Of a stretch of 64,000 nucleotides of DNA, positions 159 through 4,424 are shown one piece after another. The stretch's first letter is position 1. Each line of letters starts with the position of its first letter. A model generated the notes under the pieces. It was not told the origin of the DNA and did not search any database. It worked only from the letters and a program-made list of their open reading frames with translations. The stretch lies in the NCBI RefSeq assembly GCF_048403405.1, contig NZ_CP183129.1; one strand, written 5' to 3'. Origin of the DNA: Escherichia coli (GTDB lineage Bacteria > Pseudomonadota > Gammaproteobacteria > Enterobacterales > Enterobacteriaceae). Made by a program: the position numbers and the translations under genes.

Positions 159-286
159 CACAAAAAAACCGCTTGCGCGGTTATGCGCTTTGCTCTGTAT
201 CGGGTTGAGAATCCCGGCACCCGTTTTATGAGGTGCAGCGGAAATGTAACCTGACCGATTGAGGCATGGCAAGCGGTTTTTTTGTG
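159..286. repeat. 18-bp perfect inverted repeat pair (CACAAAAAAACCGCTTGC at 159-176, GCAAGCGGTTTTTTTGTG at 269-286) flanking 92 bp
   Basis: Read directly from the sequence; the two arms are exact reverse complements. Confidence 0.7.
160..183 (-). terminator. Terminator-like hairpin on the minus strand (AACCGC-GCAA-GCGGTT followed by T7)
   Basis: 6-bp stem, GCAA loop and a run of 7 T on the minus strand, about 120 nt downstream of the 305..604 ORF. It lies inside an open minus-strand frame, so its function is uncertain. Confidence 0.35.
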
Positions 287-304
287 TGTGCATGTTCTGG
301 TTTC

Positions 305-604
305 TTACTGGTTCAGAAAAAAATCAAAAACGTTATCGATGCGTTGCAGCAGCTCTTGCTGCATTGCTTCCGGCGTTTCCGGTTCGCCAGGTGCCCCCAG
401 CGTTGCGCAGAAATCAGCGATTTCATGATGGAGCGTGAGGCGAATGGCAGGAGCCGTGGTTCTGGCGTGCTCCAGCTGATCCAGCAGTGCCAGCACAGCA
501 GACGGCGAGAGCATTGCGCGAAATGCCAGTAATTTTTGAGGCGTTGCCATTCGTTGCAGGGCAAATGCCAGTTCGCGTAGCTTCTGGTGGTTGATGGTGC
601 TCAT
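305..604 (-). CDS. hypothetical prophage early-operon protein (99 aa)
   Basis: ORF in the early operon; start overlaps the upstream ORF stop by 4 nt (coupled). No recognisable family. Confidence 0.55.
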   Translation of the reverse strand: MSTINHQKLRELAFALQRMATPQKLLAFRAMLSPSAVLALLDQLEHARTTAPAIRLTLHHEIADFCATLGAPGEPETPEAMQQELLQRIDNVFDFFLNQ

Positions 605-846
605 GCTCTGGCTTCCTTCAGTAGCTGGTTAAACATGTTGGTAAGTGGATTGCCGCACCCGAACGGCATCGGGTTTATCTGGTAAGAAAAGCGACCGCCT
701 GTTTTGCGCTCTTTTCTTATGACTGAACCGCTGCGCCAGAGTCGGCGTAACTCCGCATTAATGGCTGTGGTTGGGGTATTCAGTGCTGCGGCGATTTCTC
801 CACCGCTACACCCCGGATTGGCAGCGATATAATCCAGAATGGTCAT
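601..846 (-). CDS. hypothetical prophage early protein (81 aa), possible small DNA-binding protein
   Basis: ORF coupled by 4-nt overlaps on both sides; basic, helix-rich composition. DNA-binding function is a guess. Confidence 0.5.
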   Translation of the reverse strand: MTILDYIAANPGCSGGEIAAALNTPTTAINAELRRLWRSGSVIRKERKTGGRFSYQINPMPFGCGNPLTNMFNQLLKEARA

Positions 847-1046
847 CTGCGTGACTCCTGTACCTGTCGGATAAGGTTCACCTGCACCACATTCGTGGCG
901 CAGAAGTAAGTGCCGTCAGTGAGATAGATGTGATGTGCATCCTTTTCTGAACGGTGTTTGTCGATTGTGGTAATCAGGCGTTCGTCGACTTCGTATTCAC
1001 GTCCTCTGGAGGTAAAACGAACGACAGGAAAATGCTTAATTGCCAT
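843..1046 (-). CDS. hypothetical prophage early protein (67 aa)
   Basis: ORF preceded by a strong Shine-Dalgarno (AAGGAGG) on the minus strand at about 1052-1058. Confidence 0.55.
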   Translation of the reverse strand: MAIKHFPVVRFTSRGREYEVDERLITTIDKHRSEKDAHHIYLTDGTYFCATNVVQVNLIRQVQESRR

Positions 1047-1132
1047 TACGCCTCCTTGGCGTATGCGAATACCTCCGCGAATGCGGATTGTTTTTACATT
1101 TTCTTATTTAACCTGTGGTTTTATTTGCTCTG

Positions 1133-1246
1133 TTATTCGCCAGTGAAAAAGCGTTCAATCTTTTTTACTGAATGAATAATTCGCATAATCCCAATGGCGC
1201 AGGCCACAGAAATAATCAGAACAAGCCATGAGATAAATATACTCAT
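1133..1246 (-). CDS. small hydrophobic peptide (37 aa, MSIFISWLVLIISVACAIGIMRIIHSVKKIERFFTGE), single predicted transmembrane helix
   Basis: Not in the ORF track (<60 aa). Its ATG overlaps the TGA of the upstream 80-aa ORF as ATGA; hydrophobic N-terminal helix then a basic tail. Translated manually from the reverse complement. Confidence 0.45.
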   Translation of the reverse strand: MSIFISWLVLIISVACAIGIMRIIHSVKKIERFFTGE

Positions 1247-1485
1247 GCGATATTCCCCAGCTTATACGGTTCAATATGTTCCCCGCATTCTGCGGCACAG
1301 ATTAGCTCGGAAAGTTCGTTAAGTGCATCCAGATCATCAGCGTAAAAAGCCACGTCATACAGACTCCGGATTGCCCTGGTCAATGAGTCACGGGCTGCAC
1401 GTTCAGCATGAGAGCCTGATGCACTTAAGCGAAAATAAAAACGCTCAAGTGCTTTGTTGATGAGTGTTTTATATTCTTTGCCCAT
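1243..1485 (-). CDS. hypothetical prophage early protein (80 aa)
   Basis: ORF with an AGGGTG Shine-Dalgarno 5 nt upstream; 11-nt gap to the upstream gene. Confidence 0.5.
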   Translation of the reverse strand: MGKEYKTLINKALERFYFRLSASGSHAERAARDSLTRAIRSLYDVAFYADDLDALNELSELICAAECGEHIEPYKLGNIA

Positions 1486-1496
1486 TGCAACACCCT

Positions 1497-1784
1497 TTAA
1501 TCTGCTTTCTGAATTTCAGCTTCTGAATCCATGCAAATAATTTCGATATAGGGTTCATTGCCATTAGCCTGGCGCGCTTTTTCAGCTTTGCTAATGATTT
1601 CTCGTACGGTCTGGTACGGAAGTTCCACAAGCAGTCGCGTGCCGTTCAGATAAACGTAAGTGGCTTCGTCGGCTCCGTTTTTACCCGCCGGAGCCACTCC
1701 ATCAATAGCGGATGCGCGTAATAACAGTTCACCGCGAAAATCAATAAAACGGATAAATACACCTTGTGCATGGTCTTTGGTCAT
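1497..1784 (-). CDS. hypothetical prophage early protein (95 aa; track ORF 1497..1844 trimmed to the internal ATG)
   Basis: The ATG at 1784 has an AGGTG Shine-Dalgarno and avoids a 50-nt overlap with the upstream ORF. The longer start at 1844 is less likely. Confidence 0.5.
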   Translation of the reverse strand: MTKDHAQGVFIRFIDFRGELLLRASAIDGVAPAGKNGADEATYVYLNGTRLLVELPYQTVREIISKAEKARQANGNEPYIEIICMDSEAEIQKAD

Positions 1785-1794
1785 AAAGCACCTG

Positions 1795-2136
1795 TTATAA
1801 ATCAGCCTGTTTAATAAAACTTTGTCCGCGAAGCAGACGATCAACCGTGCGTAGTGCTTCGTATAATGTGAAATCCTGCCCGAACTGATTTTCGCCGCTG
1901 CTTAGAGCAAAAATGCGGTTTCCAGTAAACGGGTTGCGTGGGCATTTGTGGACCACGATTCCAGCTTTCTCAATCAGCCAGGCATGCTCGCCGATTTGTT
2001 TTACTGGGTAGCCATCCGGCGTTGCGTGTGTATCACTCAGGCTGTAGCGGATGTTGCTGCGTGATGCACTGGTAGCGAAACGATTAGCGTGACGTTCAGC
2101 ACCATTACGAAAGCGTGAATTACGTTGCTGTTTCAT
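1795..2136 (-). CDS. hypothetical prophage early protein (113 aa)
   Basis: ORF whose ATG sits 1 nt after the stop of the preceding small ORF (TAAcATG). Confidence 0.55.
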   Translation of the reverse strand: MKQQRNSRFRNGAERHANRFATSASRSNIRYSLSDTHATPDGYPVKQIGEHAWLIEKAGIVVHKCPRNPFTGNRIFALSSGENQFGQDFTLYEALRTVDRLLRGQSFIKQADL

Positions 2137-2137
2137 G

Positions 2138-2245
2138 TTAAAGACTCTGTACAGATTTAATTATTCCGGCATAGCGGCCGAACTCAAAATATTTGCGATT
2201 AAATCGCATCGCATTGTTTTCACGTTGTGCGGACTGCTGGTTCAT
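2138..2245 (-). CDS. small basic peptide (35 aa, MNQQSAQRENNAMRFNRKYFEFGRYAGIIKSVQSL)
   Basis: Not in the ORF track. Its ATG overlaps the TGA of the upstream hydrophobic peptide as ATGA, and its stop is 1 nt before the next gene's ATG. Confidence 0.4.
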   Translation of the reverse strand: MNQQSAQRENNAMRFNRKYFEFGRYAGIIKSVQSL

Positions 2246-2349
2246 TTTCGTTTGCCTCCGCACATGAGAATTACGCCGCTTAAGAGGTAACCGAAGTTAA
2301 TTGATAGTATTACAATTAACATAAGGTCCAATTTGTCCATGCCACACAT
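2242..2349 (-). CDS. small hydrophobic membrane peptide (35 aa, MCGMDKLDLMLIVILSINFGYLLSGVILMCGGKRK)
   Basis: Not in the ORF track. A GAGGG Shine-Dalgarno sits 6 nt upstream of the ATG at 2349 (alternative in-frame ATG at 2361 and 2340). One hydrophobic helix followed by a basic KRK tail. Confidence 0.45.
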   Translation of the reverse strand: MCGMDKLDLMLIVILSINFGYLLSGVILMCGGKRK

Positions 2350-2388
2350 AATTACCCTCATTGCAGTAGTTGTGGTTTATCAGGTTTC

Positions 2389-2595
2389 TCACCCGATAAA
2401 CCAGATAACAAACGCTATAAACATCGCCCCAATAGCTGCCGGGAAAAGCCCTTTGGTATAAGCGGCGATATATTCAATGCTGAGTTCAATAAAGCGTTCT
2501 TCATGTCCCGTTAACTTACGAAACAAATAGATCGCTATTACGCCTATCTCAATAAAAACAAGGGTCAGAATGGCGCTGATGATATGGCTGGTCAT
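2389..2595 (-). CDS. small predicted two-helix membrane protein (68 aa) immediately downstream of cox
   Basis: ORF starting 6 nt after the Cox stop; two hydrophobic segments separated by a charged loop. Confidence 0.55.
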   Translation of the reverse strand: MTSHIISAILTLVFIEIGVIAIYLFRKLTGHEERFIELSIEYIAAYTKGLFPAAIGAMFIAFVIWFIG

Positions 2596-2601
2596 TTATG
2601 A

Positions 2602-2889
2602 CTAAAGCCCCAGCCACAACAACCATGCATCGCGGCGTTCTTTCGGTTGCTCAAAAAACGCTTTGCGCATGCCTTCGTTAAATGCTGGCAGATATACCCA
2701 GTTTTCTGATGCACGCGTCTTTACTGAACCTGGTTTCACAAAGTCAATTGTCGGTAGCTTTGCTGCGTCAATCATGGTTCTGACTGTGGATTCCTTGCGG
2801 CCGATCATCTTGGCGAATAGTTGATATGGCACCGCTTCAAGTGGATATGGTGCTACCTGAATGAAGCCCCCAAGCTCTGATTCGCTCAT
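2602..2889 (-). CDS. P2 Cox-like protein (excisionase / early-promoter repressor), 95 aa
   Basis: Recognisable similarity to phage P2 Cox (e.g. WVYLPA and WL.WLGL motifs) and divergent position next to the C-like repressor. Confidence 0.8.
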   Translation of the reverse strand: MSESELGGFIQVAPYPLEAVPYQLFAKMIGRKESTVRTMIDAAKLPTIDFVKPGSVKTRASENWVYLPAFNEGMRKAFFEQPKERRDAWLLWLGL

Positions 2890-2911
2890 TGTGGTAATCT
2901 CCCTAATTCGT

Positions 2912-2947
2912 TCGAATGGCTCAAAATGGCTTATATCGGCTTATTTG
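2912..2947. promoter_or_regulatory. three 10-bp-phased direct repeats (GGCTCAAAAT, GGCTTATATC, GGCTTATTTG) in the C/cox intergenic region: candidate operators
   Basis: GGCT recurs at 2918, 2928 and 2938. P2-type C repressors are known to bind direct repeats, so these are plausible operators; this is not demonstrated. Confidence 0.4.
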
Positions 2948-3002
2948 AGTGTTTTTATGTTTGTGCCCGATGTGGCATGTTGCGATGGAGGATATGCCCG
3001 AT

Positions 3003-3323
3003 ATGGCATCTTTGTCAAGCATGGGTGAAAAATTTCGCCTGATTCGTGAAGCAGAAGGTATGACCCGCCAGGAGTTTGCGGATTGTGTTGGGCTGCCTTA
3101 TGGGACGGTAACTAACTATGAGGTGAGGGGGAAGCAAGTAACAGAGGGTGCCTTACTTAAGGTTACGAAACACCCTAAATTTAAGAAATATGCTTATTGG
3201 TTATCAACAGATGAAACGATGCCGGAGGTTGGGCAAATTTCTCCGGCTCTCTCTCTTGATGGTTCCTGCAATTCGGAGGGAGATCGTGTTTCAACCGAAA
3301 CAATCCAAAAATTATCCCGCTGA
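3003..3323 (+). CDS. P2 C-like immunity repressor (HTH), about 106 aa
   Basis: Track ORF 2949..3323 trimmed to the ATG at 3003 (GGAGGA Shine-Dalgarno upstream). HTH region and C-terminal tail resemble P2 C (GLPYGT.., KYAYWL.., GQISPAL). Confidence 0.8.
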   Translation: MASLSSMGEKFRLIREAEGMTRQEFADCVGLPYGTVTNYEVRGKQVTEGALLKVTKHPKFKKYAYWLSTDETMPEVGQISPALSLDGSCNSEGDRVSTETIQKLSR

Positions 3324-3419
3324 GGCCAGAAAACTGGTTAGACCTGCTTTTTGTCTGGTCTGATTATTGCTGGAAAGAGGCTGGAGAAATTGTAGAGCGG
3401 TTCATTGGAGGGCTTCGCA

Positions 3420-4424
3420 ATGTCGATTAAGAAGCTCGAAGATGGTCGTTATTTGCTGGACATCAGGCCGAACGGACGCAAGGGAAAGCGCGTGCGTAAG
3501 GTATTTGACAAAAAATCGGTAGCGGTGGCCACTGAACGCTACATCATGGCGAACGCTGAAAAGCGGGAATATATACAGGGCTACCGTGATCGTCGAACGC
3601 TAAATGATTTGCTTGAGTTGTGGTGGATGTATCACGGCCAGCACAGGCGTAAGGCAGAAGAAGACCGAAAACAACTGCGCAACATAATCAATGAGCTTGG
3701 CGCTGATATGCAGGCTGTGGATCTTGATAAGCTAAAAATTATCGCGTGGCGTTCTCAAAAGATAGCTGATGGATTGAAACCGTCATCTGCTAACAGATAC
3801 ATGAATCGGTTATCCGGAATGTTTACCGTACTGAAGAAAATAGGCCTCTGGGATGCAGAACATCCGGTAAGGGGAATTTCTATTCTTTATGTATCTCCAC
3901 GAGAAATGGCTTTCCTGTCCCAGAAGGAAGTGGCGTTATTGCTCGATACACTGGAGGGCGATTACTGGCGTGTTGCGCTTTTGTGTTTAAGCACGGGGGC
4001 GCGCTGGAGTGAAGCCTGTAAGCTTCGTGGTGAACAGATAGTTCATAACCGTGTAACGTTTCTTGAAACCAAAAATGGCCGAAAGAGAACAGTGCCAATT
4101 TCGCAGGCAGTTTGTGAGGCGATCAAAACCAGAGAAACAGGCGGCTTGTTTGAGGTGAAGTACCGGGAATTCTGCTTGGCGCTGAAAAGAGTTAAGCCCG
4201 ATTTGCCAAAAGGCCAGGCTGCACATGTGCTGCGGCATACGTTCGCCAGCCATTTTGTGATGAACGGAGGAAACATTATTGCGCTTCAGAAGATTCTTGG
4301 CCACGCAACCATTCAGCAAACAATGGCATATGCACATTTTGCACCGGATTACCTGCAGGATGCGGTGGCCCTTAATCCGCTGAAAGGTGGCGTGAGTGTC
4401 CACGCAGTGTCCACGGGGGATTAA
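3420..4424 (+). CDS. int: P2-family tyrosine integrase (334 aa)
   Basis: Strong similarity to P2 Int across its length (MSIKKLEDGRY.., LCLSTGARWSEA, IVHNRVTF, HVLRHTFASHF, YAHFAPDYLQDA). Start taken at the ATG at 3420, 7 nt after GGAGGG. Confidence 0.9.
   Translation: MSIKKLEDGRYLLDIRPNGRKGKRVRKVFDKKSVAVATERYIMANAEKREYIQGYRDRRTLNDLLELWWMYHGQHRRKAEEDRKQLRNIINELGADMQAVDLDKLKIIAWRSQKIADGLKPSSANRYMNRLSGMFTVLKKIGLWDAEHPVRGISILYVSPREMAFLSQKEVALLLDTLEGDYWRVALLCLSTGARWSEACKLRGEQIVHNRVTFLETKNGRKRTVPISQAVCEAIKTRETGGLFEVKYREFCLALKRVKPDLPKGQAAHVLRHTFASHFVMNGGNIIALQKILGHATIQQTMAYAHFAPDYLQDAVALNPLKGGVSVHAVSTGD

Follow-up and report, generated by a model that had tools for sequence, protein, structure and literature searches.

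The window analyzed here is a 64,000-nt stretch of Escherichia coli DNA, and on its minus strand, at 1133..1246 (ATG at 1246..1244, TAA at 1135..1133), lies a gene for a 37-aa peptide, MSIFISWLVLIISVACAIGIMRIIHSVKKIERFFTGE (minus strand, 1246..1133 including the stop). Its start is embedded in the end of the preceding gene, an 80-aa DUF4754 (PF15946) gene at 1243..1485 on the same strand. Positions 1243-1246 read tcat on the plus strand and ATGA on the minus strand, so that the TGA of the DUF4754 ORF (1485..1243) shares three bases with the ATG of the 37-aa ORF; the overlap claimed in a preliminary description of this DNA is therefore present, and its geometry is that of translational coupling. 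A Shine-Dalgarno-like GGGGAA at 1253..1258 (minus strand) lies within the 3′ end of DUF4754, 6 nt ahead of the peptide ATG. Divergent relatives have GGAGG, GAGGTGG, GAGGAG or GAAGGGG in its place, with the distance to the peptide ATG unchanged, and the ATGA overlap is present in these loci as well. The 37-aa ORF is thus probably translated, and its translation is probably coupled to that of DUF4754.

Genes and signals of the early operon

The 37-aa ORF belongs to the early (cox-side) operon of a P2-like prophage of the Xuanwuvirus/P88 type, whose switch region also lies in this part of the window. An integrase gene (3405-4424) and an HTH immunity repressor gene (about 2949-3323) lie on the plus strand, and the minus strand carries, in order, Cox (2889..2602), a 68-aa protein, DUF4761, a 95-aa protein, DUF4754, the 37-aa ORF, a 67-aa protein, a MarR-type wHTH protein and a 99-aa protein. 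A 3.1-kb stretch of this region is 97-99% identical over its full length to Escherichia phage PhiR44_2 and Xuanwuvirus P884B11, and phage P88 matches about 58% of it at 92% identity. The 68-aa hypothetical protein (phrog_14475; 2389..2595, minus strand), which follows directly after cox and is annotated, has two hydrophobic stretches, so this operon does contain one or more additional genes for small membrane proteins. It was present in 1 of the 13 divergent loci compared (L095, 99% identical).

The best sigma-70-like promoter match, TTGACA-18-TATCCT (10/12), is found at 2989..3018 on the minus strand, in the repressor/cox intergenic region. Judged as a consensus match only, it is likely to be the early promoter that drives transcription from cox through to the peptide gene. 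No promoter-like site was found in 800-1600 on either strand. Since the promoter-like site lies upstream of cox and none lies near the ORF, the 37-aa ORF is most simply regarded as part of a repressor-controlled early transcript. A weak plus-strand hairpin at 1074-1087 lies outside the ORF, no convincing minus-strand terminator was found around it, and Rfam returned no family overlapping it at E<=1.

The early operon (300-3400; loci L083 and L087-L094) is strongly mosaic among relatives: the type of Cox varies, the MarR gene and the genes for the 68-aa, 95-aa and 67-aa proteins are present in some and missing in others, and some mosaic relatives carry methyltransferase, 3′-5′ exonuclease and ParE-like genes. 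Throughout, DUF4761 is accompanied by DUF4754 and the peptide. The DUF4761 gene (1795..2136, minus strand) is accordingly the third constant member of a trio that forms a compact, uncharacterized module of Xuanwuvirus early operons. Identities to the window's copies in the mosaic relatives are 50-89% for DUF4761, 29-89% for DUF4754 and 54-86% for the peptide.

The preliminary description referred to another hidden membrane peptide in the same operon and suggested that the operon may encode several membrane-active products, an activity that is only putative for the 37-aa peptide. The other peptide corresponds to a 39-aa hydrophobic ORF at 2242-2361 on the minus strand (MRVIMCGMDKLDLMLIVILSINFGYLLSGVILMCGGKRK). 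This ORF is without PGAP annotation in the E. coli record H9Ecoli, and PhiR44_2 annotates two 35-aa ORFs at the same place. It had no PHROG, NCBIfam or PADLOC match, and it was found in only 13 of the compared loci, all near-identical, so that conservation cannot decide whether it is real.

Selection on the reading frame and its distribution

Judged by length only, the 37-codon ORF could be a chance occurrence, as 73 ORFs of at least 20 aa overlap the first 4 kb of the window. It is raised above chance by comparative evidence, namely the retention of ATGA and frame-specific selection. Among IMG/VR loci retrieved via DUF4754, ATGA was kept in 80/80 and the peptide frame was intact in 79/80; the remaining locus (1/80) has an early frameshift, which indicates that the peptide gene is dispensable for prophage carriage. 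When loci were retrieved via the peptide alone (80 viral contigs and one E. albertii genome), ATGA was again found in 81/81, and the upstream ORF fit the DUF4754 profile in 81/81.

Pooling 65 distinct 111-nt alleles from 164 loci, we obtained a pN/pS of 0.32 in the peptide frame, compared with 1.10 and 1.87 in the other two sense frames. Antisense-frame values were 0.99, 0.43 and 1.60, and the 0.43 belongs to the codon-aligned mirror frame, which contains stops; it is the expected mirror effect of selection on the peptide frame. No stops occur in the peptide frame across the 65 alleles, and variable sites at codon positions 1, 2 and 3 number 28, 16 and 35. Pairwise comparisons with the most divergent alleles gave dS of 0.8-2.4 and dN of 0.16-0.30. 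With dS high and dN low, conservation acts at the protein level and does not stem from recent recombination. Frame conservation in homologous prophages had been proposed at the outset as the test of the ORF, and the result, an intact frame in nearly all loci under purifying selection, favors a real gene. By these comparative measures, the 37-aa ORF is a genuine conserved phage gene. A plus-strand gene antisense to it was considered and ruled out, as those frames carry stops and their constraint is weaker or absent.

The ORF is neither unlisted nor hidden, as it had been called. RefSeq/PGAP lists the identical ORF as WP_000021656.1, 'hypothetical protein' (the PGAP call was taken from an E. coli chromosome 100% identical over 451 bp, window 1050-1500), and gp07 of Escherichia phage P88 (YP_009113050.1, 'membrane protein') has the identical 37-aa sequence. 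P88 gp07 is the same gene: the sequence, the place directly after DUF4754 and the 4-nt overlap are all identical. UniRef names include 'Prophage membrane protein', and over 1000 E. coli, Shigella and Salmonella contigs carry the exact sequence. With existence and membrane nature both on public record, these two properties of the gene were already known; the P88 gp07, WP_000021656.1 and UniRef records supply a name only and give neither a function nor experimental support. As it stands, the value of the present analysis is mainly one of quality control, in that the ORF is real, under selection and already annotated.

The locus was found in 1387 of 5426 complete E. coli genomes, O157:H7 included, and every genome listed with most of the 161-nt query has a CDS ('hypothetical protein') over it. 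An identical copy of the peptide is carried by a Citrobacter rodentium phage. The range is nevertheless a narrow enterobacterial one: an exhaustive profile search of 1.84 billion cluster representatives returned 17 proteins, all of the same narrow family; a word-indexed search returned only Escherichia entries (coli, albertii and fergusonii), none of them named; and a scan of species-representative genomes, with the limited sensitivity of a single N-terminal pattern, gave one match, in Escherichia albertii. Sequence searches of PHROG, NCBIfam, PADLOC, Pfam and PDB gave no match for the peptide. Literature searches with DUF4754, the peptide sequence and the accessions found no papers, the gene is not mentioned in the P88 paper or in a 2026 paper on P2-like diversity, and the peptide sequence is absent from the supplements of the EHEC Sakai Ribo-seq small-gene paper.

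Predicted membrane architecture and variation of the tail

The peptide was originally described as a hydrophobic helix followed by a charged tail, and this description holds. Residues 3-21, IFISWLVLIISVACAIGIM (1184..1240, minus strand), form a predicted transmembrane helix whose Kyte-Doolittle hydropathy averages 2.68 (crude Hessa sum, -2.9 kcal/mol), and contain an S13xxxA17 small-xxx-small motif together with the invariant W7, A17 and G19. Residues 22-37, RIIHSVKKIERFFTGE (1136..1183, minus strand), make up an amphipathic, net-positive tail with 4 K/R and 2 E and the invariant I24, I30, E31 and F34; its hydrophobic moment is 1.98, compared with 0.19 for the helix. The N-terminal flank is uncharged and the C-terminal flank is net positive in all subtypes, the 41-aa forms adding KRRK. 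Topology of membrane proteins is governed by the positive-inside rule, and because the tail is net positive an N-out/C-in orientation is predicted, which would place the tail in the cytoplasm. By prediction, the peptide has the architecture of a single-pass inner-membrane small protein. AlphaFold2 modeled it as one long continuous helix; block-mean pLDDT is about 69-81 along most of its length and drops to 53 towards the C-terminus.

Peptide subtypes are 37 and 41 aa long, the latter ending in ...FTGDKRRK. All of them share M1, W7, A17, G19, I24, I30, E31 and F34, position 22 is almost without exception occupied by R or K, and the S/A13xxxA17 motif recurs among them. The window's copy matches the pattern of the cluster, M-[SN]-[IV]-[FL]-x-S-W...A-[IV]-G-x-[MV]-[RK]-I-I...K-x-I-E-x-[FL]-F-T-G-[DE] (37-41 aa), and shares the context of P88 gp07-like genes, an ATGA overlap behind DUF4754 within a P2-like early operon; this group is an uncurated sequence cluster that has no Pfam, PHROG or NCBIfam model. 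Constraint is as strong in the tail as in the helix (pN/pS 0.35 vs 0.33). A lipoprotein or signal peptide was ruled out: C16 is not conserved, relatives having M, F, Y, I or S at this position, and so does not mark a lipoprotein, and the hydrophobic stretch is followed by only 16 residues.

The end of the tail is a different matter. Two homopolymer runs in 1146..1166 (minus strand; A6 at 1161-1166 and T5 at 1146-1150) give rise to natural frameshift alleles with 45-aa tails, and because of these runs such alleles are frequent, accounting for about 10% of loci and including the isolated phage PhiR44_2. In phage Chuche the peptide is truncated to 30 aa. The extreme C-terminus is evidently tolerant of change, and the occurrence of tail variants in apparently viable phages weakens any claim that it is essential. 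The A6 run is part of an in-frame A_AAA_AAG heptamer at the Lys-Lys codons (1160-1166, minus strand), which is the E. coli dnaX -1 slippery sequence, and a -1 slip there would yield a 30-aa product ending ...KKD. A programmed -1 frameshift was ruled out as a conserved feature; the heptamer is absent from the 41-aa subtypes and is therefore probably not a programmed site. Separately, in Escherichia phage 503458 (locus L084; NC_049341.1, 30727-30834) both the DUF4754 and the peptide genes are broken by single-base homopolymer indels and the peptide is without annotation. These indels look like sequencing or assembly error rather than biology.

Candidate roles of the peptide

We favor, with confidence and doubt in about equal measure, a reading in which the gene product is an early, translationally coupled, single-pass inner-membrane peptide that modulates a conserved membrane partner, most probably a host protein. 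Because the gene sits in the early lytic operon, loss of the immunity repressor would allow its transcription from the early promoter, and expression at this stage of the phage cycle is presumptive. A ribosome ending DUF4754 would restart at the overlapping ATGA, aided by the Shine-Dalgarno-like site. The peptide would then expose two N-terminal residues to the periplasm, span the membrane with residues 3-21 and keep its positive, amphipathic tail in the cytoplasm. The helix may pack through a face formed by W7, S/A13xxxA17 and G19 against the membrane partner, most probably a host inner-membrane protein, and the juxtamembrane tail (R/K22, I24, K28, I30-E31, F34-T-G) may contact the cytoplasmic side of the same protein. 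The activity of the partner would thereby be changed during early lytic development.

The invariant residues, and a tail constrained like the helix, point to a specific partner rather than to generic membrane damage. A host target is proposed on the basis of relative conservation. Identity to the window's copy in divergent relatives is 54-76% for the peptide and 29-42% for DUF4754, and other early genes are absent or 23-53% identical; in NCTC9112 the values are 73% for the peptide and 29% for DUF4754. Moreover, peptide subtypes have recombined with different DUF4754 subtypes, and in one locus the peptide is kept behind a truncated 57-aa DUF4754. A host membrane partner is favored since the peptide is more constrained than its phage neighbors and recombines freely among them.

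One specific form of the host-partner reading, which we advance tentatively and regard as rather doubtful, holds that the peptide is a host-takeover factor that binds one conserved Escherichia/Salmonella inner-membrane protein early in the P88-like lytic cycle. Its target may be a divisome, transport or respiratory component. Such a role would explain why the peptide is conserved above almost every other early gene, and if it is true, the peptide could serve as a ready-made 37-aa probe or inhibitor of that host protein, carried by about a quarter of sequenced E. coli. Should the more general role proposed above hold, the peptide would be one more very small phage protein that reprograms a host membrane machine.

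Known small membrane proteins offer partial parallels. AcrZ, MgrB, MgtS and KdpF are shorter than 50 aa, have one transmembrane helix and a short charged flank, and bind a larger membrane protein. The peptide resembles them in size, in build and in its proposed mode of action, but it is phage-encoded, lies in an early lytic operon and is coupled to a phage gene. In sequence it is unrelated to them, as only the peptide's own family was recovered among the 1.84 billion representatives. Tiny phage membrane proteins with specific host targets include Pf4 PfsE, T4 Imm and HK97 gp15; most of these proteins act in superinfection exclusion and are made from the prophage or very early. The peptide has no homology to these proteins and, in contrast to them, its gene lies behind cox in a lytic operon under repressor control, so no expression is expected in the lysogen.

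The chief rival to the host-partner reading, which we consider rather unlikely, is that the peptide serves as the membrane anchor or partner of soluble DUF4754, the two forming a complex of two subunits in fixed proportion that has no independent host target. Strict linkage to DUF4754, seen in 81/81 and 79/80 loci and always with the 4-nt overlap, fits an anchor equally well, as does the persistence of the pair, together with DUF4761, while the remainder of the early operon is mosaic. DUF4754 itself is confidently predicted to be a small three-helix bundle (pLDDT 92) with no enzymatic fold, as is typical of an adaptor; searches of PDB and BFVD with this fold gave nothing at E<=0.001 and only generic helical bundles and designed proteins. 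AlphaFold2, given a DUF4754-linker-peptide construct with a paired alignment, returned helices for both parts, a result neutral as to binding. Against the anchor reading stand the far better conservation of the peptide and the pairing of its subtypes with different DUF4754 subtypes, which gives no sign of co-evolution; the locus with the truncated DUF4754 also speaks against it. DUF4754-peptide fusions were looked for and ruled out: the longer proteins in databases stem from read-through in another frame or from frameshifts in assemblies, and no genuine in-frame fusions were found.

It is improbable that the peptide is a membrane-damaging toxin, type I toxin-like or holin-like, which would oligomerize and depolarize the inner membrane for host shutdown or lysis timing. 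In size and build, a single hydrophobic helix with a charged end, it does resemble type I toxins (Hok/Gef, TisB, Ldr, Ibs, ShoB) and class III holins. Hok is coupled to the overlapping upstream frame mok, which the coupling of the peptide recalls, and the small-xxx-small motif could equally drive self-association. Yet a Pfam scan of 8 members gave no match to the type I toxin profiles (Hok/Gef, Ldr, TisB, Ibs, ShoB, DinQ) beyond chance level (E about 0.03 or higher), nor was there an NCBIfam or PADLOC match to such toxins. A cognate antisense sRNA is not indicated at the ORF, which lacks an Rfam match at E<=1, a promoter-like site within 800-1600 and a terminator. Type I toxins occupy stand-alone toxin-antitoxin loci, whereas the peptide gene is embedded in a polycistronic phage operon and its product has a conserved soluble tail motif; this non-hydrophobic motif and the equal pN/pS of tail and helix suggest specific recognition. 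As for a holin or antiholin, the gene lies between cox and a replication gene in the early operon, outside the late lysis cassette, and no holin Pfam match was found.

That the ORF is non-functional, its conservation due to a nucleotide-level element or to recent recombination, is very improbable: no family model, literature or expression record was found for it and homopolymer frameshift alleles are common, but dS is saturated (up to 2.4) with dN at or below 0.30, selection is strongest in the ORF frame and the sole other low-ratio frame (mirror antisense) has stops, the start codon, ATGA and Shine-Dalgarno-like site are kept where the neighboring gene is only 29-42% identical, and no Rfam family overlaps.

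At the far end of the operon, just downstream of the 99-aa early gene and on the same (minus) strand, we observed strong Rfam matches to the C4 antisense RNA (RF01695, 78.5 bits, E 6e-15) and to the isrK Hfq-binding sRNA (RF01394, 63 bits, E 2e-12), at 39-126 and 162-236, respectively. A terminator-like hairpin lies at 182..167, and a small 'Derepression' (PF25738) gene is found further downstream in the operon of relatives. Together, these features suggest an sRNA-controlled antirepressor module.
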